From Candidatus Omnitrophota bacterium (lineage in GTDB: Bacteria; Omnitrophota; Gorgyraeia; Duberdicusellales; 4484-171), in NCBI GenBank assembly GCA_028713415.1, contig JAQTOI010000002.1:16689-80688 (forward strand): a stretch of 64,000 nt of DNA, written 5' to 3'. Both the position numbers and the translations under genes were made by a program. Under the pieces are notes generated by a model. It had not been told where the DNA came from and did no database searches. It saw only the letters and a list, made by a program, of their open reading frames with translations. Below are positions 16,841 to 54,232 of the stretch, piece after piece (within the stretch, counting starts at the first letter, position 1; each line of letters begins with the position of its first letter).

Positions 16841-16873
16841 AAGCTATCAGCGATCAGCCATCAGTTGTCAGCT
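16841..16873. repeat. Word-repeat inverted repeat, left arm (AGCTaTCAGCgaTCAGCcaTCAGTtgTCAGCT)
   Basis: The reverse complement of 17229-17260 (AGCTctCAGCcgTCAGCtcTCAGTcaTCAGCT) differs only in the dinucleotide spacers between TCAGC words. The two arms bracket the AT-rich ORF 16874-17203. Confidence 0.6.
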
Positions 16874-17203
16874 ATGAAAAAAAATATTAAGGTCTCGTTA
16901 TTTTACAATGTTTTCATTGTGATTTTTGTGTTTGCGCTTGAAATAAATGCAGACGATACAACGGGAATGGGATTACTTTGGATTCTAATCCTATTAATAC
17001 CGATAACCGTACTCCACGCTGCTCGGATTCTTTACGTTTTTTTCAAAAAACATGATAAAAGCTTTAATAAGGCTTTGTTAAACGTTTTGGGAGTAGTTGG
17101 TATCAATATCTGTGCGTTTTTTATGGATATTTTACTCGTAGTAGTAACGCTCAACTTATTGGATAGAGTAAATATTATCCATACAGAACTCATTGGCTCT
17201 TGA
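16874..17203 (+). CDS. Hypothetical small membrane protein, AT-rich insert inside the oxidoreductase operon
   Basis: About 109 aa from ATG 16874 (the track ORF starts at TTG 16865). It is very hydrophobic, Ile/Phe/Leu/Asn-rich and has about 33% GC against about 48% in the flanking genes. It is flanked by inverted word-repeats at 16841-16873 and 17229-17260. Confidence 0.4.
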   Translation: MKKNIKVSLFYNVFIVIFVFALEINADDTTGMGLLWILILLIPITVLHAARILYVFFKKHDKSFNKALLNVLGVVGINICAFFMDILLVVVTLNLLDRVNIIHTELIGS

Positions 17204-17228
17204 ACGCATCAGTTTATAAGAGATAAAA

Positions 17229-17260
17229 AGCTGATGACTGAGAGCTGACGGCTGAGAGCT
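17229..17260. repeat. Word-repeat inverted repeat, right arm (AGCTGATGACTGAGAGCTGACGGCTGAGAGCT)
   Basis: See the left arm at 16841-16873. Confidence 0.6.
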
Positions 17261-18313
17261 ATGAATAATAAAATATTACTATCAGGCAACGAAGCTATGG
17301 GCGAAGCCGCTATACGTGCCGGCTGCCGCTTCTATGCCGGCTACCCCATAACGCCACAAAACGAGCTAACCGCATACATGGCAAAAAGAATGCATCAGGA
17401 AAAAAGGATTTTTATCCAGGCGGAAAGCGAATTGGCGGCGATTAATATGGTTTTTGGCGCATCTTCCACGGGGGCCAGGGCAATGACCTCTTCTTCAAGC
17501 CCGGGAATTTCTTTAAAACAAGAAGGTATTTCATATATGGCCGGAACACAATTGCCTGCGGTTATAATTAATGTGATGCGCGGAGGGCCGGGATTAGGGA
17601 ATATCTCTTCAAGCCAGAGTGATTACTTCCAGTCAACACGCGGAGGCGGACATGGAGATTACTTTACGCCCACACTTGCACCCGCAAGCGCTCAAGAAGC
17701 TGCAGAGCTTACGATGCTCTCGTTTGATATGGCGGATTATTACAGGACGCCCGTATTAATCTTAGCTGATGCGATTATCGGGCAGATGATGGAACCATTA
17801 ATCCTGCCGCAGAAAAGCACCTTTACAAAAAAACTCGCGGCAAAAAGCTGGGCTTTAACTGGAGCGGACAAGCGGGCTCCCAACATCGTGCGCTCACTGT
17901 TTTTAGGGGAAGGGATGCTCCAGGCGCACAACGAAATGTTGCGTAAAAAATGGGAAACTATAAAAAATAACGAACAGCGCCATGAGGCCTATAAAACAGA
18001 AGATGCCAGATATCTGATTATCGCCTACGGTTCACAGGCGCGCATAGCAATTGATGTAATCGATTCTTTAAGAAAACAAAATATAAAAGCCGGGCTATTT
18101 CGCCCGGTGAGCCTCTGGCCCTATCCTGAAAAAGCATTGCGGCAAATCAGCAAAAAAATAAAAAAGGTTTTTGTCGTTGAGCAATCACTGGGCCAGATGA
18201 TAGAGGATGTGCGTTTGAGTTTGCCGGGCGAAGAAATACATTTTTTTGGAAAAGCCGGAGGAGGAATCCCGACGGTTGAGGAAATTATAAAATTTGTAAA
18301 AAGAAATTACTAA
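17261..18313 (+). CDS. 2-oxoacid:ferredoxin oxidoreductase alpha subunit (KorA/VorB-type)
   Basis: 350 aa. The N-terminus MNNKILLSGNEAMGEAAIRAGCRFYAGYPITPQNEL is typical of KOR/POR alpha subunits. Confidence 0.8.
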   Translation: MNNKILLSGNEAMGEAAIRAGCRFYAGYPITPQNELTAYMAKRMHQEKRIFIQAESELAAINMVFGASSTGARAMTSSSSPGISLKQEGISYMAGTQLPAVIINVMRGGPGLGNISSSQSDYFQSTRGGGHGDYFTPTLAPASAQEAAELTMLSFDMADYYRTPVLILADAIIGQMMEPLILPQKSTFTKKLAAKSWALTGADKRAPNIVRSLFLGEGMLQAHNEMLRKKWETIKNNEQRHEAYKTEDARYLIIAYGSQARIAIDVIDSLRKQNIKAGLFRPVSLWPYPEKALRQISKKIKKVFVVEQSLGQMIEDVRLSLPGEEIHFFGKAGGGIPTVEEIIKFVKRNY

Positions 18314-18326
18314 AACGAAATTAAAA

Positions 18327-18348
18327 ATCACAAATTCCCTGCCTTGCC
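18327..18348. repeat. REP-like GC palindrome (CCCTGCCTTGCCGGCAGGCAGG), copy 3
   Basis: Lies just after the korA stop and probably serves as a terminator or stabiliser hairpin. Confidence 0.6.
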
Positions 18349-18490
18349 GGCAGGCAGGCAAATTACAAATAAATTCCAATAACCAATGGCCGAATTATCT
18401 AAAACGGAAAGCTGTTTGGAATTTTGGTAATTAAAATTTGGATATTGTTTGTAATTTGATGCTTGGAGATTGGAATTTTAAAAAGTTATT

Positions 18491-19231
18491 ATGAATAAAG
18501 TATTTACTCAATCAAAGTCTCTACGAGACATTGACACCCATTACTGCCCGGGATGCGGCCATGGAATATTGCACCGGCTTGTTGCAGAAGTTATCGACGA
18601 GCTTGGGTTGCGCGAGAAAACAATTGGAGTCGCGCCGGTTGGCTGCGCGGTCATTGCTTATGATTACTGGAGTTTTGACTGCACGGAGGCAGCCCACGGC
18701 AGAGCATTGGCTGTTGCCACAGCAATTAAACGCTGCCGGCCGAATCTGGCAGTATTCACTTATCAAGGAGACGGAGATTTAGCCTCTATAGGCCTCGCCG
18801 AAACCGTGCACGCAGCAAATCGAGGCGAGAACCTTACATGTATATTCGTGAATAATGCCTGCTATGGCATGACCGGCGGGCAAATGGCACCCACGACAAT
18901 CATCGGACAAAAAACTACCACAACACCCTGGGGAAGAAGCCCCTCAAACGGCGATGGCTGGCCGCTTAAGGTGAGCGAAATGTTAGCTCCTTTGGAAGGC
19001 GTATGTTTTGTTGCGCGAGCAACCATTACAAACCCTAATGCTGTGCTGAAAACAAAAAACTATATTAAGAAGGCCTTTTGCAATCAGATGGAAAATAAGG
19101 GGTTTTCTCTGGTGGAAATTTTAAGCCCTTGCCCGACAGTCTGGCAGAAAGAACCAACGCAGGCGATGAGGTGGATAGAGGAAGAAATGGTTAAAGTGTT
19201 TCCATTGGGAGTAATAAAGGATAAGGCATAG
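18491..19231 (+). CDS. 2-oxoacid:ferredoxin oxidoreductase beta subunit (TPP-binding)
   Basis: 246 aa with HYCPGCGHGILHRLV... and a TPP-binding GDG motif (YQGDGDLASIG). Confidence 0.8.
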   Translation: MNKVFTQSKSLRDIDTHYCPGCGHGILHRLVAEVIDELGLREKTIGVAPVGCAVIAYDYWSFDCTEAAHGRALAVATAIKRCRPNLAVFTYQGDGDLASIGLAETVHAANRGENLTCIFVNNACYGMTGGQMAPTTIIGQKTTTTPWGRSPSNGDGWPLKVSEMLAPLEGVCFVARATITNPNAVLKTKNYIKKAFCNQMENKGFSLVEILSPCPTVWQKEPTQAMRWIEEEMVKVFPLGVIKDKA

Positions 19232-19302
19232 CGCAAAGAGCAGAGCGCAAAGCGTTAAAATTTTTCATACGCTATGCGCTATGCGCCACGCGCTTAGCGA
19301 AT

Positions 19303-19845
19303 ATGAAAGTAGAAATACTATTATCCGGCTTCGGCGGACAGGGCGTAATGAGCTTGGGCAAGGCCTTGGCAACTGCTGCGCTTATGCAAGGAAAGCACCC
19401 CATTTATTTTCCTTCCTATGGGGCTGAAGTGCGGGGAGGAACCGCCTATTGTTTCGTGAAGATATCTGACGAAACTATCGGCTCGCCTTTAATAGAGAAA
19501 CCTGATATCGCTATTATTTTAAACCAGCCTTCATTGGATAAATTTGAGAAGGACTTAAAAACAAGCTGTCTTTTAATCGCAAATTCAGATCTTATCACGC
19601 GCAAAATTGTGCGCAAAGATATAGAGGTGGTGCTGGCACCGCTTAATACTATAGCTCTTGACTGCAAAAACAGCAAAGTAGCAAATACGGTTGCGCTGGG
19701 GATTCTTATCGCGCTAAGGCCACAGCTGCTTAAGAAAGAAACCATATTAAAATTTCTTGAGCAAACATTTCCACCGGGAGAATTGTTAGAGCAAAACAGA
19801 GAGGCGTTGAACAAAGGCATACAATACGCTTTGTCAAAAAAATGA
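19303..19845 (+). CDS. 2-oxoacid:ferredoxin oxidoreductase gamma subunit
   Basis: 180 aa. MKVEILLSGFGGQGVMSLGKALATAA is typical of the POR/KOR gamma subunit. Confidence 0.75.
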   Translation: MKVEILLSGFGGQGVMSLGKALATAALMQGKHPIYFPSYGAEVRGGTAYCFVKISDETIGSPLIEKPDIAIILNQPSLDKFEKDLKTSCLLIANSDLITRKIVRKDIEVVLAPLNTIALDCKNSKVANTVALGILIALRPQLLKKETILKFLEQTFPPGELLEQNREALNKGIQYALSKK

Positions 19846-19936
19846 TTCCAGCGATTAGGGAAAGATTACGGAGATTTCTAATCACTGTAATCGTTCTCAT
19901 AATCTGTGTAATCAAAACCAATAAAAGAATTATTTA
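19846..19936. repeat. Intergenic word-repeat element (GATTACGG/TAATC words)
   Basis: ...gattacggagatttctaatcactgtaatcgttctcataatctgtgtaatc... lies between korC and gltX. Confidence 0.5.
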
Positions 19937-21223
19937 ATGGTAAAAGTAAGATTTGCTCCCTCACCTACGGGGTATCTGCATATCGGCGGCGCACGCACCT
20001 GCCTTTTTAACTGGCTCTATGCCCGCGCTAAAAAAGGTAAATTTATTTTGCGCATCGAGGACACCGACCTTGAACGCTCAAAAAAGGAATATCTCGATGA
20101 AATTTTAGAAAGCATACGCTGGCTGGGGCTGGACTGGGATGAAATTTATTACCAGTCACAGCGTTTTGACCTCTACAAGCAATACGCGCAGAAATTAATA
20201 GAGTCGGGCAACGCTTATCAAAAAGAAGGCGCGGTTTTTTTTAAATACCAGTTTAGCAAAATAGAAATTAATGACTTAATCCGCGGGAAAATCATCTTTA
20301 CCGAATTACCCAAAGAAGAAGAAGTGATAATAAAAAGCGATGGCTCTCCGACATACAATTTTAGCTGCGTGATAGATGACGCTACTATGGGCCTTACCCA
20401 CGTGATAAGAGGGGAAGACCATATTTCCAACACTCCCAAACAAATACTGATGTATAAGGCGCTGGGCTTAAACACTCCTGAATTTGCGCATGTGCCGTTA
20501 ATTCTATCTCCTGACGGAGGCCGCCTTTCCAAGCGTTACGGCGCAACTTCTATACGCGAATACAAAGAAGCCGGTTATCTGGCTGATGCAATCGCCAATT
20601 ACTTATCGCTTTTGAGCTGGTCCCCAGGCAATAACCGCGAAATTATCTCGCTTGACTCAGCAAAAGAAATTTTTGATATAGCGGATGTCAATAAAACCGG
20701 AGCAGAATTTTCTCTGGAGAAATTAAACTGGTTGAATTCAGAATACATCAAAGCCAAAGACACTAAAACTTTGGCCGAAATTGTAGCCAATTTTCTGAAA
20801 GATAAAAAATTCCTTCCGGAAAATGTTTCACAAGATTATTTAGAAAAGGTAACGCAGCTTTTCAGGGACCGTTTGGTGAAACTTTCTGATTTTCTTGATC
20901 GTGCGAGGTTTTGCTTCTATGATGATTATGTATATGCGCCGGATACTCAAGAAATATTGCAAAACAACCTTTCTAAACAAATAGATGCGCTCGCGCAGAA
21001 GATGTCTGACATAGCCGATTTTAATAAGCTTGCGATAGAGACGGAATTTCGTGCAACCTGCACAAATTTAGGCCTAAAGACAAAAGAGCTGGTGCATCCG
21101 GTGCGCGTAGCCCTTAGCGGAAACAGGGTAGGCCCGGGTTTGTTTGAAACTATGGAAGTGCTTGGGAAAAATGAAGTGGTAAAGAGGCTTAAACGCCTCA
21201 TTCAATATTGGCAAAGTACGTAA
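19937..21223 (+). CDS. gltX: Glutamate--tRNA ligase
   Basis: 428 aa with RFAPSPTGYLHIGGARTCLFNW (the HIGH motif) and a KMSKS-like LSKRYG. Confidence 0.9.
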   Translation: MVKVRFAPSPTGYLHIGGARTCLFNWLYARAKKGKFILRIEDTDLERSKKEYLDEILESIRWLGLDWDEIYYQSQRFDLYKQYAQKLIESGNAYQKEGAVFFKYQFSKIEINDLIRGKIIFTELPKEEEVIIKSDGSPTYNFSCVIDDATMGLTHVIRGEDHISNTPKQILMYKALGLNTPEFAHVPLILSPDGGRLSKRYGATSIREYKEAGYLADAIANYLSLLSWSPGNNREIISLDSAKEIFDIADVNKTGAEFSLEKLNWLNSEYIKAKDTKTLAEIVANFLKDKKFLPENVSQDYLEKVTQLFRDRLVKLSDFLDRARFCFYDDYVYAPDTQEILQNNLSKQIDALAQKMSDIADFNKLAIETEFRATCTNLGLKTKELVHPVRVALSGNRVGPGLFETMEVLGKNEVVKRLKRLIQYWQST

Positions 21224-21231
21224 GGAGGCCT

Positions 21232-21405
21232 ATGAAAAAATTTTATTTTATTCTTATCGCGTTAATTGCAATCATTTCTCTTTCAGGTTGCGCGACAGTA
21301 CGCAATGTTTCAGAAGGTTTAGGCAAAGGTGTGGTTGAGGACGGAAGAAATACGGTCAATCACCTAAAAACCGCTAACGCCTGGTGGCGCGAGCATACGT
21401 GGTGA
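21232..21405 (+). CDS. Small lipoprotein (58 aa)
   Basis: MKKFYFILIALIAIISLSGC has a lipobox. The RBS AAGGAGG lies 7 nt upstream. The track ORF starts 24 nt earlier, inside the gltX 3' end. Confidence 0.4.
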   Translation: MKKFYFILIALIAIISLSGCATVRNVSEGLGKGVVEDGRNTVNHLKTANAWWREHTW

Positions 21406-21480
21406 AAATTGATTACAGAGATTACGGAAAGATTACGGAGATTGTAAATCTCTGAAATCTTTTCCTAATCTCCGGAATCG
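21406..21480. repeat. Intergenic word-repeat imperfect palindrome (GATTAC/TAATC words)
   Basis: gattacagagattacggaaagattacggagatt-gtaa-atctctgaaatcttttcctaatctccggaatc. The two arms pair about 75%, with mismatches confined to dinucleotide positions. Confidence 0.55.
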
Positions 21481-21499
21481 TTTAATTTAAGGAGGTGCT

Positions 21500-21895
21500 A
21501 TGAAGATTTTAATGTTGGTTTTCGCAGCATCGTTGTTCCTGAATATGACTGCTTACGGAGAAAATAGTTATACTGCAATGGGGAATAGTTATACTGTAAC
21601 GGGGGATGGTAATACTACAATGGGAAGCGATCCTTACGTGGCTGCTTGCGCCAAAGAATGCAGCTTTTTAACCAAAGACTGCACCGCGTATCTGGACTGC
21701 CGGGTGGCCAAAACAACCTGCACGGAAAATTGCATGCAGCGTAAAGTATGGGAGAAAGTGGCAATATCTTTGGATAAATTAATTGTTTCACTCGAAGAAC
21801 AAACTCAAGCGTCTCTTAAAGAAAAAGAAATATTTGCGCAATTAATTAAAACTCTTTCAGCCGGGGCCCAAAAAAGCGAAACAGGCGCCGAATAA
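21500..21895 (+). CDS. Secreted Cys-rich hypothetical protein with N-terminal NSYT tandem repeats
   Basis: 131 aa with a signal peptide and ENSYTAMGNSYTVTGDGNTTMG, which is encoded by about 3 imperfect 21-nt DNA repeats, then 6 Cys residues. The RBS GGAGG is upstream. Confidence 0.45.
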   Translation: MKILMLVFAASLFLNMTAYGENSYTAMGNSYTVTGDGNTTMGSDPYVAACAKECSFLTKDCTAYLDCRVAKTTCTENCMQRKVWEKVAISLDKLIVSLEEQTQASLKEKEIFAQLIKTLSAGAQKSETGAE

Positions 21896-21955
21896 ACCGG
21901 CGCTCAATAATCTTTTAAACAATTAGGGCCTCGATTGGCAGGAAAACAAACAGAA

Positions 21956-22111
21956 ATGGCTAAAAAATGTAAAAAGTGTGGTGTGCCTCTGGAAGGATTC
22001 TTATATAACTGGATTGCTTCAAAAATACTGGGGATAAAACCCTCTACGCAAGATACAGACATCTGCAATAAATGCGAAGATAAGAAAAATATGCAAGGTA
22101 AACGACTATAA
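21956..22111 (+). CDS. Putative 51-aa zinc-ribbon-like small protein
   Basis: Hand-translated MAKKCKKCGVPLEGFLYNWIASKILGIKPSTQDTDICNKCEDKKNMQGKRL with two CxxC pairs. Its stop overlaps the next ORF's ATG. It is below the track cutoff and speculative. Confidence 0.3.
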   Translation: MAKKCKKCGVPLEGFLYNWIASKILGIKPSTQDTDICNKCEDKKNMQGKRL

Positions 22112-22410
22112 TGAGCCCCCTTCTAACTCAATTATTAGCACTAAGCTTATATGTTTTAACCATGGGGTTCTGTTTTTGCGACGGTTTTAAGCTGCATATC
22201 GCAAGAAAACTCGCCTGGTTTCTTGTGTTCCTTTTAATCAGCGCCTATACCTTTCAATTAAAAGGAGAATATGATCTGGCGCTGATCTTGCCTATTCCTT
22301 CTTTGCTGGCAATACTATTATGCAATTACCAAAGAAAGGAAGCGTTGCTTCGGGAAGCTCGGGAAATAATGGCACGCTCAGCGCAACGCCAAAAAATGCT
22401 ACAAAGATGA
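22111..22410 (+). CDS. Hypothetical small membrane protein (99 aa, 3 TM)
   Basis: ORF in the track, hydrophobic, with no known domain. It overlaps its neighbours translationally. Confidence 0.4.
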   Translation: MSPLLTQLLALSLYVLTMGFCFCDGFKLHIARKLAWFLVFLLISAYTFQLKGEYDLALILPIPSLLAILLCNYQRKEALLREAREIMARSAQRQKMLQR

Positions 22411-22526
22411 GGCTGTTATTTCTGGCGTTTCTTACGCTTTTTTTATGCGCTTGCCTGTTCGATAAAAAACCTGTCAGGAAAGGTTATGTTACCTATTACC
22501 CCGCAAAAGCCACAAAGCCGCGATGA
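22407..22526 (+). CDS. Tiny lipoprotein (39 aa) with a GYVTYYPAKAT motif
   Basis: The ATG at 22407 overlaps the previous stop (ATGA). MRLLFLAFLTLFLCAC has a lipobox. It is a paralog of the next gene. Confidence 0.4.
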   Translation: MRLLFLAFLTLFLCACLFDKKPVRKGYVTYYPAKATKPR

Positions 22527-22714
22527 AAATATTGTTTATTGTATTGCTTGCCATCCTCTGCGGCTGCTCTAATCAAAAACCTTATACTGAAGGTTATACC
22601 ACTTATTACCCTGCGAAATCCACAACGCCCACCGTCTATCAAACTCCTTATGACATCATCGAAGAGGGCAATAAAATAACAACCAGAAAAACTACCTACG
22701 AAGCCGCTCAATAA
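22523..22714 (+). CDS. Small lipoprotein (63 aa) with a GYTTYYPAKST motif, tandem paralog of 22407-22526
   Basis: MKILFIVLLAILCGCS has a lipobox. It shares the GY(V/T)TYYPAK(A/S)T motif with the upstream gene. Confidence 0.45.
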   Translation: MKILFIVLLAILCGCSNQKPYTEGYTTYYPAKSTTPTVYQTPYDIIEEGNKITTRKTTYEAAQ

Positions 22715-22725
22715 TTTGTTGTTAT

Positions 22726-23034
22726 TTACCGGCCGCGATAATCACCCCTGTGATTATATTGACCATAAAACCTGGCTCGTTTTTCCCAGTGGCCGCCAAT
22801 CCAAACATACCTTCGGAATCTTCCTTGCCGCTCCCAATGCCCAGGGACCCAGATAAAATCACGATGCTGCCTTGAATTTATGTTGATTTGGAATCCGGGA
22901 AAACGCGCCTGAATAACCGGAACAACTACTGTAGATTTATCCCTGTGCTGGTCTCTTGGCGATGCAAAGGCATTGTTGCTTGTAAAAATAACACCTGAAA
23001 GCAAAAGACAAACTACCAAAATCAGCCGTTTCAT
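22726..23034 (-). CDS. Secreted basic hypothetical protein with duplicated W(V/I)(P/G)GHWE(R/K) motif
   Basis: 102 aa with a signal peptide MKRLILVVCLLLSGVIFTSNNAFA and an internal repeat ...IWVPGHWERQGRFRRYVWIGGHWEKRARF. Confidence 0.45.
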   Translation of the reverse strand: MKRLILVVCLLLSGVIFTSNNAFASPRDQHRDKSTVVVPVIQARFPGFQININSRQHRDFIWVPGHWERQGRFRRYVWIGGHWEKRARFYGQYNHRGDYRGR

Positions 23035-23661
23035 AAACCCTCCTTTTTAATGAGCGCGTGACTTATGGAGCGAACGCATGTGAGCGCTCATAAGCCACAT
23101 GCGCGAATGATCCCGTTTTTGCCTCCATTGATATTTTCGCAATTTCCCCGTGCCGCCCTTAGCGGCAGGAAATTGCGAGAGAAACCTATTGGGCGCAAAA
23201 ATGGGACAAATTCGACCTAGCATTTTTCCTGCGTATTAACTTGTAAAAATGCTGGTCTCATTTGATTAGACGATAGAGGGTCAAAAAAAGTCTACATGCA
23301 ACTCTACTGCCACCAATAGTATTTCAATCTGCGTAATCTTTCTTCAATCTGTGCAATCAAGTTCTTTCCCTTTACTACAAGCTTGGGAAAGAACTAAAAA
23401 TTCTACTTGCGATAATCCCTTGAAAATAATACAATAATTCAAGTTAATGAGGCAGTTAAAATTTAAGCCGAAGGCTTAACTTTTACGTAGCCGAATTAAT
23501 CCCGCCGGAGTCATGGTAAATTTGCGAAGTAAATTTACCGTGTATACAGCGAAGGCGGGATAACACGTTTTCTGGATAGTCTAATATTTGTCCCAACTAA
23601 CGTTGGGACAAATCGACTAGAGGCTTTTGTGCACCTTCAGCTTCAAAAGCCTGAGTCTCAT

Positions 23662-23736: not shown

Positions 23737-23744
23737 TAATAAAA

Positions 23745-23776
23745 AATCCTCCTCATTTTTTTGAGGGGGATTTTTT
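23745..23776 (+). terminator. Rho-independent terminator after tRNA-Gln
   Basis: AATCCTCCTCA-TTTTTTT-GAGGGGGATT hairpin followed by TTTTTT. Confidence 0.45.
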
Positions 23777-23945
23777 ATTTATAGTTTTAGGCATGGAGGA
23801 GAACCATCAAAGGGAGCTCAAGGGAAAAGACATTTTTCCCTCGAATTACGTACGCTTCTTTGCAAGGGAAAGAAGTGACAGTCCGCCACACAAGTGGCGA
23901 GGCGTCAGAGAAGAAAACCGTAGGTTGTCTTTTATGAGGAGCGAA

Positions 23946-23967
23946 GCCTGCCTGCCGGCAGGCAGGG
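23946..23967. repeat. REP-like GC palindrome (GCCTGCCTGCCGGCAGGCAGGG), perfect 20-bp palindrome core, copy 4
   Basis: Lies in the non-coding region downstream of tRNA-Gln. Confidence 0.6.
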
Positions 23968-26787: not shown

Positions 26788-26915
26788 ACAACTATCTTGA
26801 CACCGCAGAGGCGCAAAAAGGAAAAAAAGAATGCACTTAGTTATTTTTAAATTTTTTATCTCACTTTTGCGTTTTTGCGCACTTTTGGCGGTTTAGCGGT
26901 GTAAAAATTTAAACA

Positions 26916-38167: not shown

Positions 38168-38348
38168 GTATAATTAAGGTTACATAATGCATCTTTATTT
38201 AAATGCCCAATGATGCAATGACGAATAAAATCCCAATGGCCAAATATCCCAATTGGATATTGGTGTTTAGGTCGTTCATTGTATAATTCGGGAGATGTGT
38301 TTACATTTTGTCATCGCGTCATACGTTAAACGGTTGCGAGGCTCGTTA

Positions 38349-38370
38349 CCCTGCCTGCGGCAGCCAGGGG
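38349..38370. repeat. REP-like GC palindrome variant (CCCTGCCTGCGGCAGCCAGGGG) at the centre of a ~400-bp imperfect palindrome
   Basis: Lies at the centre of the 38168-38592 intergenic element. The flanking arms reuse the words CCAATG/CATTGG, GACGAAT/ATTCGTC and GGTTGCG. Confidence 0.5.
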
Positions 38371-38592
38371 TTGCGTTGTAGGGTTGCGTTAAAAAATATC
38401 AGCAAAAATAACGACGATTTACGTTTACCGCCCAACGATACGAGCTGTGCAACCGATAGACGTAAGACGTAACCTTAAGTTTAAGAATTGTAAACTTGAC
38501 ATCCAAATAATACACATTCATTCGTCATTCGGATTTAGGCATTGGACATTAAATTTTATTATTGAGATGTAACTTCTTAAAGAGGAGGTATC

Positions 38593-39465: not shown

Positions 39466-39529
39466 GAAAGCTGGACTAAGAATAACAATAATAGCTCGTG
39501 AGCTCATCAGCTCATGAGCTCGCGAGCTA

Positions 39530-43816: not shown

Positions 43817-43852
43817 CTAGTTTTTCTCTAAAAGATACTTGTTCGGCGAAAA

Positions 43853-44903: not shown

Positions 44904-44995
44904 TGATTACGGATGCAGACGGATTACTACGGATGCCGCAGATTATCGATAAATTCATCCGTCCAATCCGCAACAATCCGTGACATCCACACTTA
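44904..44995. repeat. Intergenic word-repeat imperfect palindrome (CGGAT/ATCCG words)
   Basis: gattacggatgcagacggattactacggatgccgcagattatcgataaattcatccgtccaatccgcaacaatccgtgacatcc lies upstream of maf. Confidence 0.5.
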
Positions 44996-45009
44996 AATAA
45001 AATTAAGTT

Positions 45010-45594: not shown

Positions 45595-45596
45595 TT

Positions 45597-45655
45597 AAAA
45601 CGCGGATGAACGCGGAGTCAGCGTTGTTCCGCGTATTGTTCCGCGGCAATCCGCC
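45597..45655. repeat. Intergenic word-repeat imperfect palindrome (CGCGGA/TCCGCG words)
   Basis: aacgcggatgaacgcggagtcagcgttgttccgcgtattgttccgcggcaatccgc lies between maf and the surA-like gene. Confidence 0.5.
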
Positions 45656-45677
45656 TCTACCATTAAAGGAGGGCTTC

Positions 45678-46658: not shown

Positions 46659-46786
46659 CTCTTTTCATAAGCTTAAAAATAACCGTTTTTTCCTAAATCT
46701 CTGTAATCACTCCCCTAATCTACGTAATCAAGTCTTTACTGAAAAAACTTGACGCAAAAAGCTTTCTGTGTTAATATCTCTCCCTT

Positions 46787-47098: not shown

Positions 47099-47281
47099 TT
47101 TATAAAATCTTTTTTACGCAGATAATCGCAGATTAGAAGCTACAGATAACCGCAGATAGATAAAAAAGGTTTTGTATAATATGATTAGCCTTATCTGTAT
47201 TTTCCATCATATCTGCGATCATCTGCGTTGATTTATTAATTTTTTATTCAGGTTGTTTCATCTGCGCTAATCTGCGTTTAT
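47099..47281. repeat. Intergenic word-repeat imperfect palindrome (CGCAGAT on the left arm, ATCTGCG on the right arm) with a TGnTATAAT extended -10 box in the centre
   Basis: ...acgcagataatcgcagattagaagctacagataaccgcagatagat...tgtataat...atctgcgatcatctgcgttg...tcatctgcgctaatctgcgttta-ATG(obg). Confidence 0.55.
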
Positions 47282-48223: not shown

Positions 48224-48271
48224 AACTTTTTAAGCCTGAGACCTGAAGCCTGTAGCTTGTAGCCTGAACTT

Positions 48272-49318
48272 ATGAAAAAAATTGTCGTAAAAATTGGCAG
48301 CAGTGTTATCGCGCCAACCGGGAAATTGGAGCAAAAGCTGGTGGAGGGTTTCGTCAGCGATATACTCTCTGCGCAAATGCAAAGCTGTAAAGTTATATTA
48401 GTAACATCGGGGGCCATCGCCGCCGGAGCCGATGCTTTAGGCCTTAAGAAAAAACCCGCAAGTCCGCATTCTTTAATGGCGATTGCCTCCCTGGGCCAAA
48501 TAATCCTGATGGATGCCTACAAAAGCGCTTTCTCCAAACATGGCGCTAAGTGTGCGCAAATACTGCTCACTTGGGATGATTTTGATATACGCAGGCGTTT
48601 TTTAAACGCCCGCTCAACCATAGAAACATTACTTAGTATGGGCATAACTCCGGTAATCAACGAAAACGACGCTGTTTCCAGCGAAGAGATAAAATTCGGA
48701 GATAACGACAGGCTCTGCGCGCTTGTCGGCGACTTGATAGGCTCCGATAAAGTAATAATCTTATCGGACGTTGCCGGCCTCCTGGATGAAACGGGCCAAA
48801 TAAAGAAAACTGTCGAAAAAATTGATTCAAAAATCTATAAACTTGTCAAAACAAAGAGCGGAAAATTTACTTCAGGGGGCATGTATACAAAACTGCAAGC
48901 GGCCCAAATCGCTACAGCCAGCGGAGCGACTCTTTTTATCGCAAGCGGCAAGGAAAAAGATGTAATCAGCCGGATCGTGCGCGGGGAAGCTCCGGGAACG
49001 CGGTTCTTGCCGGCTGTAAAAATAGAGAAAGCTCGCAAGCGCTGGATTGCCTTCAGCAAAAAAATAAAAGGTAAAATCTGCATTGATGATGGGGCCAGGG
49101 ACGCGGTTATAAACCGCGGCAAAAGCCTGCTTTGCGTAGGCATACTCAATATTGAAGGCGATTTCAAACGTAAAGACTCCGTGTGTTTGGTTGATAAATC
49201 AGGTAATATCCTAGGCTGCGGCCTGGCAGAATATTCCTGTGACGAGCTTAAAGATTCCAAAAACAAAAAACTCCAGAAAGAAGTAATCCATAGAGATAAT
49301 TTTGTTATTAAAAAATAA
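48272..49318 (+). CDS. proB: Glutamate 5-kinase with C-terminal PUA domain
   Basis: MKKIVVKIGSSVIA...VTSGAIAAG... is the amino-acid-kinase fold, followed by a PUA domain. Confidence 0.85.
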   Translation: MKKIVVKIGSSVIAPTGKLEQKLVEGFVSDILSAQMQSCKVILVTSGAIAAGADALGLKKKPASPHSLMAIASLGQIILMDAYKSAFSKHGAKCAQILLTWDDFDIRRRFLNARSTIETLLSMGITPVINENDAVSSEEIKFGDNDRLCALVGDLIGSDKVIILSDVAGLLDETGQIKKTVEKIDSKIYKLVKTKSGKFTSGGMYTKLQAAQIATASGATLFIASGKEKDVISRIVRGEAPGTRFLPAVKIEKARKRWIAFSKKIKGKICIDDGARDAVINRGKSLLCVGILNIEGDFKRKDSVCLVDKSGNILGCGLAEYSCDELKDSKNKKLQKEVIHRDNFVIKK

Positions 49319-49419
49319 CGCAGATAATCGCTGATTACACACAGATGGTCGCAGATTATTTATCTGCGTAAATCTGCGTTAGATGTGCGGTAATCTGCGT
49401 TTGAAGAAATAATATTATT
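49319..49419. repeat. Intergenic word-repeat imperfect palindrome (CGCAGAT/ATCTGCG) ending in TAATCTGCGTTTGA before proA
   Basis: cgcagataatcgctgattacacacagatggtcgcagattatttatctgcgtaaatctgcgttagatgtgcggtaatctgcgtttga. Confidence 0.55.
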
Positions 49420-50670
49420 ATGCAAAAATACGTTAAAACATTAGCCAAACAGGCAAAGGAAAACAGTTATAAGCTGGCGGCATTGACCAGCGACCAGAAA
49501 AATGCCGTGCTGCTTAAGATGGCTGATTATATTATCGCGGAAAAAGAATTTATTCTTAAAGAAAATAAAAAGGATGTTGCGGCAGCGCTAAAAAATAAAT
49601 TGCAGAAAAGCTTTATTGACCGGCTTTCCTTAAACGAACAGCGCATAAATGAGATGGCGTCCGGCTTGCGGGAGGTGGCGGGGCTGGCTGATCCTGTAAA
49701 CAGCATAATCAGCCAAAGCAGGAGGCCCAACGGCATTTCTATTAAAAAAGTAAGGGTCCCTATCGGAGTTATCCTTATAATTTATGAGGCGCGTCCTAAC
49801 GTTACCTGCGACTGCATCGGGCTGCTTTTTAAATCTTCTAACGTAGCTATTTTGCGTGGAGGCAGCGATGCCATACGTTCTAATCTTGCTATCGCTAAAG
49901 TTTTAGAAAAAGCTATAAAAGAAAGGGGGGTTAATTTTAATCCTTTTTTTGTGGTGGAGAAAACTGGCTATAGCGTTACGGATGCATTACTGGCCCAAGA
50001 TAAATATATTGACCTGGTTATTCCCAGAGGCGGAGAAAGTTTAATACGCAAGGTCGTGGAAAAATCGCGTATCCCTGTCCTTAAACATTATAAAGGCGTC
50101 TGCCACTTATTTATCGATAAAGACATAGATACGCAAAAGGCGCTTAAAATATGCGTAAATTCAAAAGTCCAGCGCCCCTCTGTCTGTAACGCGGTTGAAA
50201 AAATCCTCATTCACCAGGATGTAGCAAAGTCTTTTTTACCGCTCTTAAAAAATGAATTCGATAAATATCGCGTTGAGATTAGAGCTGACACCCAAACTGC
50301 AAAAATCATAAAGGGCGTAAAAAAAGCCACTGAAAAAGATTGGTTTGCCGAATACCTTGACCTTATTATCGCTATAAAAGTAGTAAGGGGTATTGACGAA
50401 GCGATTAGCCATATAAATAAATATGGCTCGCACCATACAGACAGCATAATTACCAACGATACAGCAAACGCTGAAAAATTTATTAAGGAAGTTGATTCTG
50501 CCTGCTGTTTTGTGAATATCTCGACGCGTTTTTCTGACGGGTATCAGTTTGGTTTAGGCGCAGAAATTGGAATTTCCACCGACAAGCTTCATGCGCGCGG
50601 GCCTATGGGATTGGAAGAACTGACAACCTATAAGTGGGTGGCAGAGGGCGACGGACAAATTAGAGAATAG
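49420..50670 (+). CDS. proA: Gamma-glutamyl phosphate reductase
   Basis: 416 aa aldehyde dehydrogenase-fold protein with catalytic Cys context (...PSVCNAVEKILIHQD...) and of ProA length, downstream of proB. Confidence 0.85.
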   Translation: MQKYVKTLAKQAKENSYKLAALTSDQKNAVLLKMADYIIAEKEFILKENKKDVAAALKNKLQKSFIDRLSLNEQRINEMASGLREVAGLADPVNSIISQSRRPNGISIKKVRVPIGVILIIYEARPNVTCDCIGLLFKSSNVAILRGGSDAIRSNLAIAKVLEKAIKERGVNFNPFFVVEKTGYSVTDALLAQDKYIDLVIPRGGESLIRKVVEKSRIPVLKHYKGVCHLFIDKDIDTQKALKICVNSKVQRPSVCNAVEKILIHQDVAKSFLPLLKNEFDKYRVEIRADTQTAKIIKGVKKATEKDWFAEYLDLIIAIKVVRGIDEAISHINKYGSHHTDSIITNDTANAEKFIKEVDSACCFVNISTRFSDGYQFGLGAEIGISTDKLHARGPMGLEELTTYKWVAEGDGQIRE

Positions 50671-50685
50671 CATAGCGCATGGTGC

Positions 50686-51273
50686 ATGGTGCAAAGCGTA
50701 GAATACAAAAAACATAAACAGATGGATTTTGAGATAGTATTAAAAAACCTGGCAGATGAGTTTGAAAAAAATAAAATAGGCTATGCGCTCATTGGAGGAT
50801 TTGCGTTAGGAATATATGGCGTGGTACGTTCGACGAACGACCTTGATTTTCTTATCGATAAAAAACACCAAGCTCTCCTCAAGAAAATAATGAAACAAAA
50901 TGCATACGATATTATTCATGAATCTGAAGATGTTATCCAGTTTGAACATCCTACGGGGGCGTTCGGCAGCATAGATTTTTTGTACGCCTTTAGGCAACCT
51001 TCATTGGAAATGCTAAATCGTGCTGTTAAAAAAATAATATTTGAAGAAACCATAACCCTTAGCGTGCTTCTACCAGAAGATCTTATCGGCCTGAAAGTGC
51101 AGTCGCTTCAAAACAATCCTCAACGAAAAGTTCTTGACCTTGAGGACATCAAAGGCCTGCTGGAAGCAAACGCAGCAAATCTTAATTGGGGACTTATTGA
51201 AAAACATTTTGCGTTATTTGGGCTCAATGGTATATATGTAGAATTAAAAAATGCCTATGCTAAAAAACAATAA
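50686..51273 (+). CDS. Nucleotidyltransferase-fold protein (pol-beta superfamily, MNT/AbiEii-like), stand-alone
   Basis: YALIGGFALGIYGVVRSTNDLDFLI fits hG[GS]..........[DE]h[DE]h. The start may be the ATG at 50722 (MDFEI...). No partner gene is seen. The family is uncertain. Confidence 0.45.
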   Translation: MVQSVEYKKHKQMDFEIVLKNLADEFEKNKIGYALIGGFALGIYGVVRSTNDLDFLIDKKHQALLKKIMKQNAYDIIHESEDVIQFEHPTGAFGSIDFLYAFRQPSLEMLNRAVKKIIFEETITLSVLLPEDLIGLKVQSLQNNPQRKVLDLEDIKGLLEANAANLNWGLIEKHFALFGLNGIYVELKNAYAKKQ

Positions 51274-51494
51274 AATTATACCTTGTACTGTTCCGGAAAA
51301 AGAACGTATTAAAAGATACCTTCGCTTTGTAGTATTTTTTAACAAATTCATTAATCATAAGAAAAAAATTCACCGCCTGTTCATCGCGCGCGATATGAAA
51401 ATGTGAACGAAATTTTATGGCTCATCTCAATAGTAGAATTAAGCAACAATAAAATAAAGAATTAAGTATTCGTGGAAATTCGTGTATAAAAATC

Positions 51495-52055
51495 ATGAAA
51501 ATAGGCATACTCGGAGGCACGTTTAATCCGCCGCACATAGGGCATTTGATACTGGCGCAGGAAGTATATCAAAAACTTAATTTAGATAAGATTTTTTTTG
51601 TTCCTACCAATATACCGCCGCATAAAGAAAGCCATAACGTAAAAGCCGCAGACCGCTTAAAGATGCTGCGTCTTACCGCCGAAGAAGATAAGAACTTTGA
51701 AGTGCTGGACCTTGAGATAAAACGCGGCGGTGTTTCTTATACTATCGATACGGTAAAGGAACTAAAAAACCAATATCCTAAAGCCGAATTTTACCTTATC
51801 GTAGGTTCGGACCTGGCAAATGATTTTCCCACCTGGAAATATTTTGAGGGGCTTAAGAAAGCGGTAAAAATAGTGGTCGCAAAAAGGCGCGCCTTTCCGC
51901 TCCAAAGCAAGAATAGATTCATCATTTTAAGAATAGTGCAGATGGGAATTTCTTCTTCCTATATACGGGGGTTGATAAAAAAGGGTTTTTCGGTAAAATA
52001 CCTCGTTACCGATTCGGTAGCTAGGTATATAGAGAAAAGAAAGTTATATAAATAA
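51495..52055 (+). CDS. nadD: Nicotinate-nucleotide adenylyltransferase
   Basis: MKIGILGGTFNPPHIGHL is the (H/T)xGH motif of NadD. Confidence 0.85.
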   Translation: MKIGILGGTFNPPHIGHLILAQEVYQKLNLDKIFFVPTNIPPHKESHNVKAADRLKMLRLTAEEDKNFEVLDLEIKRGGVSYTIDTVKELKNQYPKAEFYLIVGSDLANDFPTWKYFEGLKKAVKIVVAKRRAFPLQSKNRFIILRIVQMGISSSYIRGLIKKGFSVKYLVTDSVARYIEKRKLYK

Positions 52056-52158
52056 CTAACGCAGATGCACACAAATCTAACGCGGATTCCCGCAGATAAA
52101 TCATCTGCGATTATCTGTGTTGTGTCTGCGATAATCTGCGTTTGAAAAAAGGAGTCAA
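52056..52158. repeat. Intergenic word-repeat imperfect palindrome (CGCAGAT/ATCTGCG) ending in TAATCTGCGTTTGA before the phosphohexomutase gene
   Basis: aacgcagatgcacacaaatctaacgcggattcccgcagataaatcatctgcgattatctgtgttgtgtctgcgataatctgcgtttga. Confidence 0.55.
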
Positions 52159-53550
52159 ATGATCAAATTCGGCACTGACGGCTGGCGCGCGGTTATCGCG
52201 CAGGATTTTACTTTTGATAACGTAAAAATAGTCACTCAAGCAATTGCCGACTATTTACATAAACAACCCGGGGAAAATAAAAAAGTAGTTATCGGCTACG
52301 ATTGCAGATTTTTATCCGCGGAGTTCGCAAAGACAGTTGCCATAGTTCTTTGCGCAAACAAAATAAAAGCGGTGCTCTCGGACAGAGCAATACCCACCCC
52401 GGCAGTAAGCCTACATGCCCTGGCCGGTAAATACGATTTAGGCGTGATGATTACCGCATCTCATAACGGGGCAGAATTTAACGGCCTAAAGATAAAAACT
52501 AAAGACGGGGGGGCGGCTGATAAAGCGCTTACTGATAAGGTCGAAAACCTGCTTTATAAAACAAAACCGAAAATATTAGCAGAAGAAGAAGCCAAGAAAG
52601 CCGGCCTGCTTAAAATACAGGATTTAACTGAAGCCTACATAGCATTCTTCAAAAAATTCGTCAACATAGATAAAATAAGAAGGCTCAAACTACATATCCT
52701 GGTGGATGTCATGTACGGCGCAGGAGATAATTTCATTGAAAAAGTCTTAGGTTCCTGCAATATCAAATTTAGTTATCTTAACAATGAATTTAACCCCTCT
52801 TTCGGGGGGATACATCCTGAGCCCATAGAAGAATACCTTAAAGACATGAGTTTAGCCATGAAAACCGGAAAGTATGACTTGGGAATAGTGCTCGACGGAG
52901 ACGCGGACCGGATAGCTGCTTTTGATTCTACCGGTAATTATGTCAACGCCCAAATCCTTCTGCCTCTCTTAAGCGTACATATGAACAAAAACAGAAAAGA
53001 AGCCGGGGGTATAGGAAAAACCGTAGTGGGCAGCAACATTATTGATGAGGTCGCTCTTTCCTTGGGGGTTGCCTGTTACGAAACGCCGGTGGGCTTTAAA
53101 TATATCTCCAGCCTCTTCAAACAAGGCCTAATTTCCGTCGGGGGGGAAGAAGCCGGAGGCATAGGCTTTAAGGGGTATATCCCGGAAAGAGACGGTTCCA
53201 TGTCCTGCCTGCTGCTTTTGGAGATGATTGCTTACGAAAATAAAAACTTTGATACTTTGCTTAAAGAACTTTATTCACAGTTCGGCAGATGGTATTATAG
53301 CCGCACAAGCCTTCCGGTAAAAAGCGTTAAAAAAAGCATAAATGATATGAAAGTTCCGCAAGCGCTCTTAGGAAAAAAAATAGAAAGAGTCAATACGCTT
53401 GACGGCGTAAAACTAATTACTAAAGATAGCTGGCTGATGTTTCGTCAATCAGGCACCGAACCTATTGTCAGGGTCTATGCGGAAAGTAAAAGCAAAGAGG
53501 AAGCCGACAGGCTTCTTGCTTTGGGCAAAAAAATGATTTATGCTCTATGA
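52159..53550 (+). CDS. Phosphoglucomutase/phosphomannomutase family protein (alpha-D-phosphohexomutase)
   Basis: The active-site loop TASHNGAEFNGLK (TASHNP-like), the metal-binding DGDADR, and four-domain length all fit. Confidence 0.8.
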   Translation: MIKFGTDGWRAVIAQDFTFDNVKIVTQAIADYLHKQPGENKKVVIGYDCRFLSAEFAKTVAIVLCANKIKAVLSDRAIPTPAVSLHALAGKYDLGVMITASHNGAEFNGLKIKTKDGGAADKALTDKVENLLYKTKPKILAEEEAKKAGLLKIQDLTEAYIAFFKKFVNIDKIRRLKLHILVDVMYGAGDNFIEKVLGSCNIKFSYLNNEFNPSFGGIHPEPIEEYLKDMSLAMKTGKYDLGIVLDGDADRIAAFDSTGNYVNAQILLPLLSVHMNKNRKEAGGIGKTVVGSNIIDEVALSLGVACYETPVGFKYISSLFKQGLISVGGEEAGGIGFKGYIPERDGSMSCLLLLEMIAYENKNFDTLLKELYSQFGRWYYSRTSLPVKSVKKSINDMKVPQALLGKKIERVNTLDGVKLITKDSWLMFRQSGTEPIVRVYAESKSKEEADRLLALGKKMIYAL

Positions 53551-54109
53551 GATATTAAAAAGCATAGGCCTTTTTATCTTTACCTGTTTCTTTGGGCTGT
53601 GCGTTAAGGGAAAGAAAGTTTTCCCAAGAAGCGGGCCCTTCATCGTCGCCTGCAATCACATAAGCAATCTTGACCCTATTGTTCTTGGTTGCGCCTGCCC
53701 CAGGCAATTGTATTATCTTGCCAAAGAAGAACTCTTTGAGAATAAGCTTTTTGGCCTCCTGCTGCGTAACATTAACGTCCTGCCCTTAAAAAGAGGGAAA
53801 TCTGACATACGTATAATGCGAGCCGCCCTTTCTATATTAAAAACAAGCCCGCTTGCACTTTTTCCTCAAGGAACCAGGGGCGCAAATTTCGATAACTTTA
53901 AAGCCGGCGTGGGTTTCTTATATAGGAAGGCTAAAACCCCTGTTATTGCGGCAAAAATCTCCGGAACTGAAAATATCCTGCCCAAGGGGGCGAAATTCTT
54001 AAAAAAAGGCCGCATAACCATCATTTTTGATGAGGTAAGAAACATAAAAAACGAAGATACAAGCGAAGAAGTCGCTCAAAAAGTAATAGAAAAGATAAAA
54101 AGCCTCTAG
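53540..54109 (+). CDS. plsC: 1-acyl-sn-glycerol-3-phosphate acyltransferase
   Basis: The HxxxxD motif (ACNHISNLDP) and FPQGTR are present. It overlaps the previous gene by 11 nt. Confidence 0.75.
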   Translation: MLYEILKSIGLFIFTCFFGLCVKGKKVFPRSGPFIVACNHISNLDPIVLGCACPRQLYYLAKEELFENKLFGLLLRNINVLPLKRGKSDIRIMRAALSILKTSPLALFPQGTRGANFDNFKAGVGFLYRKAKTPVIAAKISGTENILPKGAKFLKKGRITIIFDEVRNIKNEDTSEEVAQKVIEKIKSL

Positions 54110-54117
54110 AAATTAGG

Positions 54118-54232
54118 TAAAGGCCAGGGTAACGAGGCCAGTATCGGTCAACGGTAAAGGTTACGTGCAGAAAATAAAAGACGTTTTACCGTAACCGATA
54201 AACGAAACGGGCGTCGTAACCGTTACCTTATT
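54118..54232. repeat. Intergenic word-repeat element (GGTAAC/GTTACC/CGTAAC words)
   Basis: aggccagggtaacgaggccagtatcggtcaacggtaaaggttacgtgcag...gttttaccgtaaccgataaacgaaacgggcgtcgtaaccgttacc lies after plsC. Confidence 0.5.

Follow-up and report, generated by a model that had tools for sequence, protein, structure and literature searches.

The DNA stretch analysed here (the window) comprises 64,000 nucleotides of a Candidatus Omnitrophota bacterium (contig JAQTOI010000002.1, positions 16,689 to 80,688), in which many gene spacers are filled by hairpins built from short reiterated words. At least 16 spacers of the window are imperfect palindromes, and when all types are counted it holds more than 20 elements, every one of them intergenic, at a density of about one element per 2.5–5 kb. 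They were compared with about 1.3 Mb of other loci (relatives, metagenome contigs, and cultured bacteria, numbered with the prefix L below). Our best explanation, held with about even confidence, is that the elements form a superfamily of palindromic repeats, resembling REPINs and MITEs (miniature transposable elements with inverted repeats), with arms built as arrays, which were inserted at gene boundaries and are tolerated or exploited there because they fold.

Each arm consists of 2–5 tandem units of 7–14 nt, for which Tandem Repeats Finder (TRF) gave periods of 7, 8, 9, 10, 11, 12, and 14. The unit is a conserved word of 5–8 nt with a variable spacer of 1–4 nt, and the second arm is an inverted copy of the first. 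In the predicted stems, word-on-word runs of 5–9 pairs alternate with small symmetric internal loops at the spacers. About a dozen word families are present in the window, with families of two to four copies within the 64 kb. In the C-R-CAGAT family, the unit (logo a-C-R-C-A-G-A-T-d-A-n-c) is mostly 10 bp long; the four bases preceding GAT are 77–90% conserved, and those following it are nearly free. Its R position covaries between the arms, with 69 G:C and 11 A:T pairs vs 10 A.C and 9 G.T combinations in 46 distinct hairpins. A preliminary description of the window had estimated that the arms pair at about 75%, with the mismatches in the spacers. Watson–Crick pairs make up 571 of 786 aligned pairs (73%) in 22 hairpins, and in the 46 C-R-CAGAT hairpins they reached 93% opposite intact words and 65% in the spacers, in good agreement with both estimates. 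The words also recur as had been noticed: 12 copies of CGCAGAT (3.6 expected) and 15 of ATCTGCG (3.8 expected) were counted, with clusters at 47.1, 49.3, and 52.1 kb.

Arm order is fixed within a family (CRCAGAT is always 5′), and the purine-rich arm was the 5′ arm in 95 of 116 word hairpins (82%); without the family used as search bait, the counts were 60 vs 21. As the elements are palindromic, this purine/pyrimidine polarity is valid on both strands. Stop codons in all frames were considered as a cause of purine-rich 5′ arms and rejected for the window, where per 100 nt they numbered 5.1 overall, compared with 4.7 for the 5′ arms and 5.8 for the 3′ arms. Nesting of one element inside another was observed in the window at 38168–38592 and in L027, L076, and L107.

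Fold stability was expressed as z against 100 dinucleotide shuffles on both strands. Palindromes had been claimed at 14 loci, and 12 of these fold beyond shuffles on at least one strand, with z from −3.2 to −7.9 and with −8.3 for a split pair whose arms were joined. The remaining two are not palindromes on their own: 46686–46740 (plus strand) is a one-armed TAATC array without a fold (z −1.2), situated upstream of the conserved rplU promoter and absent in L186 and L188, and 50671–50700 (plus strand) is a truncated one-armed array of CATAGCGCA, GCATGGT twice, and GCAAAGCG (z −0.2), whose CATAGCGCA is also found at 19227. Forty coding 90-mers taken as a control gave a mean z of −0.36, with one of the 40 below −3. 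A combinatorial scan required two or more copies of a 5-mer followed by two or more of its reverse complement, for a total of at least five; it returned 13 loci in the window vs 1.4 (maximum 4) in block-wise dinucleotide shuffles. Stability exceeded that of same-composition shuffles, the comparison that the preliminary description had proposed, and the family of intergenic hairpins made of reiterated words was confirmed by the fold tests and by the sequence at all the loci it had cited.

The elements are not an assembly artefact, since two independently assembled Logan contigs (run SRR22315509) were 100% identical to window positions 14592–21474 and 49040–55676, and like elements are also present in finished records of cultured bacteria. 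Logan contig L003 terminates inside an element, as is expected of an inverted repeat in an assembly graph. Open reading frames (ORFs) running into the elements had been regarded as spurious, a view that two cases support. The start of the surA-like gene is more plausible at GTG 45678, behind AAAGGAGG, than at ATG 45606 inside a hairpin of ACGCGGA units that stands 3′ of maf, 2 nt from the stop codon (45597–45639; z −3.3 for 45597–45655). The predicted small membrane protein orf109 (16874–17203), in the loop of the split hairpin, had no homologue among 5.8 billion proteins; it is probably not a gene, and it was rejected as cargo. In practice, such elements break assemblies and mislead annotation, which then contains orphan ORFs and 5′ extensions that are not real.

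Gene order around gltX and proA is kept in relatives (L004, L005, L007; L186, L187, L188), and the spacers could therefore be compared junction by junction. GltX of the window (19937–21223) is identical to a protein encoded on an 85-kb contig of a Candidatus Omnitrophica metagenome-assembled genome. The closest relatives showed protein identities of 79% for GltX and 75% for ProA, which is too distant for insertion boundaries to be read; a ProA search of genome contigs gave relatives at only 47–49% identity. In what follows, hairpins have no assigned strand, paired z values refer to the two strands, and the span of the preliminary description is given where z refers to it. Between korD and korA, the window has a split hairpin insert (16841–17260) with an ATCAGC-word arm at 16841–16873 and a GCTGA-word arm at 17229–17260. 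The joined arms gave −43.8 kcal/mol (z −8.3), and the AT-rich interior of 355 nt contains the orphan orf109; relatives have 10–62 nt at this junction. The 177-nt korA/korB spacer is filled by a hairpin of AATTCCAAT/CAAATTAC units (18351–18464; z −5.8; inverted repeats I8 and I14), where L004 has a 4-nt and L005 an 8-nt gene overlap. The 71-nt korB/korG spacer carries the GCGCAAAG hairpin with CATAGCGCAAAG/CGCTATGCG units, which includes the korB stop codon (19226–19298; z −2.0/−3.2 for 19232–19302), in place of the ATGA overlap of L004 and L005. At the same junction, L007 independently has a CACAGAT hairpin unrelated to that of the window, its left arm forming the last five KorB codons (tail TDGHR*). 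The CATAGCGCAAAG/CGCTATGCG words recur in L007 at another junction (4168–4254). Between korG and gltX, a hairpin of GATTA/TAATC units begins at the base after the stop codon (19846–19911; z −3.6 for 19846–19936), and L005 has a GATTA hairpin in the orthologous place (9893–9965).

The three C-R-CAGAT hairpins of the window lie further downstream. The first, between rplU and obg, has four units per arm and a 130-nt interior (47116–47278; z −3.4/−7.4 for 47099–47281; inverted repeats I5, I24, and I25); L186 has a CACAGAT hairpin of the same family at this junction, and L187 and L188 have none. The second, between proB and proA, overlaps the proB stop codon, and its 40-nt arms (inverted repeat I2) are 73% complementary (49317–49401; z −6.5/−7.2 for 49319–49419). 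L187 also has a C-R-CAGAT hairpin here, L186 a GAAATC-word hairpin, and L188 a one-armed array. The third (52056–52144; z −5.6 for 52056–52158) lies between nadD and pgm, where L186 and L188 have a different conserved leader, and its centre (52092–52120) is identical at 27 of 28 positions to the korB–korG element of L007 (9418–9445). Around proA, every junction differs among the four genomes. Five elements, drawn from four genomes and occupying four different junctions, could be aligned over their full length with a mean column identity of 74%, giving a four-unit consensus with four helices of 7–9 bp parted by internal loops. The left arms of the rplU–obg element of L186 and the proB–proA element of L187 are about 90% alike, and the ProA proteins of those two genomes are 72% identical. 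Among cultured Bacteroidaceae, the atpA–atpG junction holds an AAGAATG hairpin in B. finegoldii vs about 14 nt in P. massiliensis.

These hairpins had been suggested to evolve where they stand, through word slippage or through compensatory change. Slippage clearly remodels copies, but such evolution is not supported as the main process, because orthologous junctions are empty or occupied by another family and near-identical arms stand at non-orthologous junctions. This gain and loss, the near-identical arms, and the nesting form the pattern of dispersed copied repeats rather than regulatory sequence evolving in place.

The supposed restriction to one lineage was not found either. The C-R-CAGAT hairpin also occurs in Bacteroides finegoldii (after aspD), Bacteroides nordii, Haliscomenobacter hydrossis (between two co-directional genes), Skermanella mucosa (a perfect copy), Candidatus Muproteobacteria, and Terriglobales. 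The phyla with C-R-CAGAT are at least Omnitrophota, Bacteroidota, Pseudomonadota, and Acidobacteriota, together with Cyanobacteriota, where a one-armed array was seen (Dolichospermum); none was found in 5,426 E. coli genomes. A metagenome contig scan for TGCGNTAATCTGCGTT gave at least 120 stretches, and about 40 among the matches listed are C-R-CAGAT hairpins, typically GCCGCAGATGAACGCAGATTAACGCAGATAA, a loop, and the exact complement, on contigs of 35–68% G+C from gut, soil, sediment, and water. Carriage by phages was rejected: 50,697 phage records contained no match, and 48 of the 54 matches to the same pattern in viral contigs were single, a background level that chance predicts. The window families AGATTACGG and GCGCAAAG had no match in a plasmid collection, which for a comparison of filled and empty sites offers Bacteroides relatives at genus level only.

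An exact look-up of their proteins assigned three contigs rich in different word hairpins to Bacteroides nordii (L079), Candidatus Muproteobacteria (L031), and Terriglobales (L065). By a strict criterion, the window has 2.0 elements per 10 kb and the other Omnitrophota loci have 0.5–2.5; L079 and L076 reach 4.1 and 5.8, respectively, against 0–0.7 in two control loci. Several hosts have a vocabulary in common, namely CGCAAAG, CAGGAT, ACGAAT, AGTGAT, and TTGACAG arrays. In Bacteroides contigs, hairpins with different arm words (TTGACAG, AGTGAT, AGTTGAA, and AAGAATG) share the loop CTATGCAGTAT(C)ATAGCG(C)AGC, as seen in L022 (1940–2023), L079 (7540–7626, 9766–9896, and 14237–14333), and L185 (25343–25418). 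This constant loop with varying arms is the reverse of the other hosts, in which arms are kept and loops vary.

The placement of the elements suggests how they might be accommodated. The distance from stop codon to stem was 2 nt or less in seven of the 14 elements with an upstream stop, the stop being included in the stem twice, and the distance from stem to start was 0–4 nt in seven of 15 elements. We propose that a new copy would arise at a gene–gene boundary, often exactly at an overlapping stop/start junction, where it would supply the stop codon of the upstream gene and fill the spacer up to the next start codon. Folding of the insert would hold the stop codon next to the following start codon, and the region of that start would stay base-paired until the outer stem is opened by a ribosome completing the upstream gene. 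Such a ribosome, standing at the stop codon, would have opened the outer one or two words and freed the sequence beside the next start. Unmasking by the upstream ribosome is a classical form of translational coupling, and the folded insert would replace the coupling by ATGA overlap seen in relatives. Under this proposal, the fold keeps the ancestral coupling, which might be the reason why inserts are tolerated, and perhaps used, in essential operons. A consensus pause signal (G−10 Y−1 G+1) was also considered and set aside as uninformative, because it fits any 10-nt array with YG.

Several observations weigh against insertion and coupling. The missing mobilising agent is the main weakness: a Pfam scan of the window proteins revealed neither a transposase nor a RAYT nor another candidate mobilising gene, and no gene family (transposases and RAYTs were looked for) recurs beside more than 100 C-R-CAGAT arrays. 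No longer or autonomous element bounded by the same arms was found in the loci searched, and distant arm pairs (L010, L016, L038, and L040) enclose no transposase-like ORF. At korB/korG and korA/korB, filled sites were set against empty ones in search of a target-site duplication, but at this divergence one would not be legible. For sequence-specific mobilisation, about a dozen word families within 64 kb is also a large number. The one-armed and tandem-only arrays, those at 46686 and 50671 as well as an AGCCTGA array between obg and proB (48232–48268, plus strand; TRF period 7, 5.3 copies; no hairpin) and a CGAAT array 3′ of the RNase Y gene (13463–13510, plus strand; fold not beyond shuffles, z −1.1), fit local slippage equally well. 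As regards coupling, a Shine–Dalgarno motif was present in 11 of 42 genes of the window and lacking in 10 of 13 genes behind hairpins vs 21 of 29 others. With no specific deficit behind hairpins, coupling is plausible yet not singled out by the data.

A stronger form of the insertion hypothesis, which we consider rather unlikely, is that the words are recognition sites of a horizontally spreading trans-acting factor that places copies of the hairpins at stop/start junctions of five phyla or more. The elements would then represent miniature mobile DNA of a new class, with ends built as arrays, the inserts would double as coupling modules in bacteria that make little use of Shine–Dalgarno motifs, and the long-noted intergenic heptamer repeats (TAACTGA, GGGAATC, and STRR) would be explained. 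If the elements are copied at all, a mobilising activity would be widespread in bacteria, among them Bacteroides, which can be cultured and manipulated genetically; if hosts make use of the elements, these would be a general means of keeping adjacent genes translationally coupled.

An origin within each spacer was also weighed. In lineages prone to it, slippage of 7–11-nt units would fill the spacers with tandem arrays, fold-back (template-switch) synthesis would make the inverted partner, and shared words would reflect a mutational or compositional bias. The arrays without a second arm (46686–46740, 48232–48268, and 50671–50700) speak for this, and so does that of L186 (4211–4270), where GCTGATAGCTGAAGACTGATAACTGAAAG, a TAACTGA-type direct repeat with a heptamer known from Beggiatoaceae, stands directly 5′ of proB. 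Copies differ in unit number and length, many word families share one genome, and no mobilising gene was found in the window, beside the arrays, or between arm pairs. Young copies (L087 and L128) have perfectly complementary arms despite differing units, as fold-back copying predicts. However, the spacers and the order of units, beyond the words themselves, are common across genomes and phyla, with GCCGCAGATGAACGCAGATTAACGCAGATAA recurring in unrelated contigs, and with 15 bases specified, the search pattern has much too high a specificity for independent arrays to have arrived at it repeatedly. Considering also the constant arm order, with CRCAGAT always 5′, and the arms about 90% alike at non-orthologous junctions, we judge purely local growth unlikely.

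Selection on RNA by the host was given a similarly low probability. The hairpins would be intercistronic stem-loops kept for coupling, mRNA processing (e.g., by RNase III), or protection of mRNA ends, and the REP and ERIC elements of enterobacteria have been described as RNA stem-loops with such roles. The folds are very stable and are placed flush from stop to start codon between co-directional genes; the hairpins are present in essential operons (kor, pro, and atp), include some compensatory pairs, and belong to a genome poor in Shine–Dalgarno motifs. On the sense strand of the 22 hairpins, however, G.U combinations (36) were not above A.C combinations (41), and the non-pairs comprised 138 of transversion type vs 77 of transition type, which is the roughly 2:1 ratio of unrelated bases. 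This result indicates nothing that points to RNA-only selection. Fold energies likewise showed no preference for the transcribed strand, the hairpins are not conserved at orthologous junctions, and the words are kept as sequence more than pairing requires.

The conservation of the words in sequence, and not in pairing alone, makes arrays of protein-binding sites on DNA possible, where each word would be a putative site and the arms two convergent sets. Heptad operators of ribbon–helix–helix proteins and the multiple transposase sites in transposon ends are analogues. The C-R-CAGAT unit of mostly 10 bp corresponds to one helical turn, the orientation is always convergent with purine/pyrimidine polarity of the arms, and the same word is retained in several phyla. 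Yet the words number a dozen within a single window of 64 kb and are unrelated, units of 7–14 bp are not all in helical phase, and in young copies even the spacers are complementary, which binding sites do not need. We know of no candidate protein for word binding and regard this alternative as quite doubtful. A copied element can be co-opted and slippage remodels copies; the explanations do not fully exclude one another.

Intrinsic terminators or attenuators, as the preliminary description had also suggested, are very improbable: the elements are stable intergenic stem-loops and three C-R-CAGAT copies end in GCGTTT, but a terminator scan found no complete stem with a T-tract behind it and matched only inner sub-stems, the elements sit between genes of a single pathway that overlap in relatives, the flanks in other hosts are T-rich upstream and A-rich downstream (a terminator reversed), and a canonical terminator is present for contrast at 23738–23779, 3′ of tRNA-Gln.

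The remaining hairpins of the window are as follows. Three members beyond those of the preliminary description are located between tRNA genes: one of GCAAATAGC/GCTATAAGC units with period 7/14 next to tRNA-Val (2742–2814; 27-nt arms 85% complementary; z −3.6; TRF 14 and 7), one of GCAATAGA units upstream of tRNA-Leu (2942–3017; 25-nt arms 88% complementary; 31 Watson–Crick pairs; 5′ arm 81% purine), and one of ATAGC-type units next to tRNA-Cys (3343–3414; z −4.9; 27 Watson–Crick pairs). The korA–korB hairpin (18351–18464) and a hairpin of GCGCAAAAAG/CTTTTGCG units (26800–26902; 32 Watson–Crick pairs) are likewise additions, the latter being a weaker member as its z is only −2.3. Units of AGATTACGG with period 9–11 form a hairpin at 21407–21483 (z −7.3 for 21406–21480; 29 Watson–Crick pairs; TRF 9 and 11). 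The region 38168–38592 is a composite of nested hairpins with AATGACGAAT, CCCAAT, and GGTTGCG/ACGTAA units and a CCTGCCTGC palindrome (z −4.6/−5.2; inverted repeat I12). A hairpin of GAGCTCNN units with period 8 abuts the ATG of an ABC-F gene with a stem–start distance of 0 nt (39492–39529; z −7.9 for 39486–39529; TRF 8, 5.1 copies), and ACGGAT units with one CGCAGAT unit form a hairpin between divergent genes (44911–44988; z −3.3/−4.1 for 44904–44995; 29 Watson–Crick pairs). GGTAACG/CGTTACC units form a hairpin 3′ of an acyltransferase gene and upstream of the rpsA promoter (54120–54229; z −4.4 for 54118–54232), which is absent in L186 and L188. That promoter (TTGACA-17-GATAAT; 54248–54506 region) is conserved in L186 and L188, which both lack the G+C-rich leader of 230 nt, with CCACGGG words, that follows it in the window.

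Apart from the word hairpins, there is a second repeat family of REP-like type, a small palindrome rich in G+C (CCTGCCTGCCGGCAGGCAGG), with eight half-sites in the window vs 0.4 expected. Its sites are at 2385–2412, 8578–8590, 10780–10810, 18341–18365, 23947–23966, and 38350–38372, sometimes nested within word hairpins, and L004 has two copies. A leader-like motif was also observed, in which a stem with GGGAC/T at its end is followed by CAATTCGAC(C)TA, by a short hairpin, and by AGTCTCATTG. It occurs in the window at 11831–11905, 23209–23290, and 23600–23661, in L186 at 8470–8515, in L188 at about 12100–12150, and in L005 at about 13600–13650, directly 5′ of the RNase Y gene, 5′ of pgm in relatives, and abutting tRNA genes; Rfam gave no match to it.

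The window spans a probable origin region of replication, as two parS-like sites (GTTTTCACGTGAAAAC; 8218–8233 and 8735–8750) lie beside parA and parB (6331–8166 is also listed for the region), gene orientation flips at 10.3–11.1 kb (10279–11145), and cumulative GC skew is lowest near 7–8 kb. ParB, ParA, and YidC are encoded on the minus strand, and beyond the switch nearly all genes are on the plus strand. A gene for a LAGLIDADG-like domain protein (3505–4176, minus strand) adjoins the tRNA cluster. Fragments of the tRNA-Val 3′ end (GGGCGATACAG...) occur twice at 2370–2700, upstream of the real gene (2662–2735), and may be integration scars at the tRNA. Between proA and nadD, a nucleotidyltransferase gene of AbiEii/NTP_transf_5 type (50686–51273) is present in the window, L186, and L187, and absent from L188; 3′ of it, a stretch (51257–51406) is conserved in three genomes and was called by Logan as a gene of 49 amino acids.

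Among known systems, REP/BIME repeats and REPINs are the first to be compared. REPINs are REP doublets that form hairpins and are mobilised by RAYT transposases, with families specific to a species or genus. The window elements resemble them as short imperfect palindromes that are only extragenic, have many copies and several families per genome, and also lie in operons; the hairpin is the copied unit, and arms agree better within one copy than between copies. They differ in that the arms are arrays of 2–5 tandem words and in that one family is common to several phyla. The statement that they are not classic REP sequences agrees with the lack of the REP end motif GTAG/CTAC at the stem feet of the sequences read and of a RAYT gene in the 64 kb. 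MITEs such as ERIC/IRU, Correia, and Nezha fold as RNA hairpins inside operons. Like them, the elements are non-coding (the sole internal ORF is the orphan orf109), have terminal inverted repeats within a length of 50–200 nt (50–500 nt in the usual definition), and show insertion polymorphism, nesting, and expected effects on neighbouring mRNAs. Unlike MITEs, they have ends of reiterated words, and no parent insertion sequence with the same ends was found in the searched loci.

The attC sites of integrons, which are recognised by structure rather than sequence, are also intergenic imperfect palindromes of very variable sequence. The stem feet of the sequences read lack the RYYYAAC/GTTRRRY core, the neighbours are syntenic housekeeping genes instead of cassettes, and the window has no integrase. 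Intrinsic terminators share the position of a stem-loop after the stop codon, but the stems here are long, interrupted by mismatches, low in G+C, and without a T-tract. CRISPR had been excluded beforehand, rightly so, as the units are degenerate, 7–14 nt long, separated by 1–4-nt spacers, and arranged in mirrored arrays. Rfam reported only five tRNAs in the window at the gathering score and nothing on the hairpins at E ≤ 1. The DnaA box, IHF site, CtrA TTAA-N7-TTAA, Fur hexamers, MraZ repeats, and the E. coli REP consensus were dropped because the sequences were unfit or the factor is not universal. In the literature, the exact arm sequences appeared in no searchable paper, and nothing was found on Omnitrophica with hairpin or inverted repeat.

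For decades, intergenic tandem repeats of 7–11 nt have been known from Cyanobacteria, Xanthomonas, Beggiatoaceae, and Bacteroidetes, to our knowledge without a mechanism or role; the cyanobacterial STRR sequences are intergenic repeats of heptamer type. These intergenic heptamer repeats, namely TAACTGA and the inverted GGGAATC arrays, are the closest published phenomena. TAACTGA direct repeats were described in Beggiatoaceae, Cyanobacteria, and Bacteroidetes as 169 direct sets and one indirect set, intergenic, a few nucleotides from start codons, overlapping the upstream stop, and usually without a Shine–Dalgarno motif; their patchy distribution over unrelated phyla was read as horizontal spread without a known mechanism (MacGregor 2015, PMC4679880). 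The window elements are similar in their tandem units of about 7 nt in spacers near starts, the overlap with stop codons, the usual lack of a Shine–Dalgarno motif, and the patchiness across phyla, and with TRF periods of 7–14 they agree with the definition of intergenic heptamers and LSSRs as tandem 5–11-nt units near start codons. There, one heptamer is almost always direct; here, the arrays are mostly mirrored, with many words and unit lengths. Xanthomonas has GGGAATC arrays in 70–75 convergent, intergenic, stem-loop-capable pairs per genome, and Nostoc has GGGGAYT arrays, both studied as G-quadruplex formers with one word per genus (Rehm et al. 2015, PMC4692102). In Nostoc, the heptamer repeats are found near start codons. 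The GGGAATC pairs have the purine-rich (G-rich) arm 5′ on each strand, the same polarity as the window elements, but the Xanthomonas and Nostoc heptamers were not reported as a multi-family system or as common to phyla. The present elements differ in that mirroring is the rule, many word families have one architecture and polarity, one family occurs in several phyla, and gain and loss are seen directly at stop/start junctions. By this comparison, the window has the densest, mirrored form of short intergenic tandem repeats, and the same architecture, the same arm polarity, words common across phyla, and gain and loss at stop/start junctions link intergenic repeats to one another.

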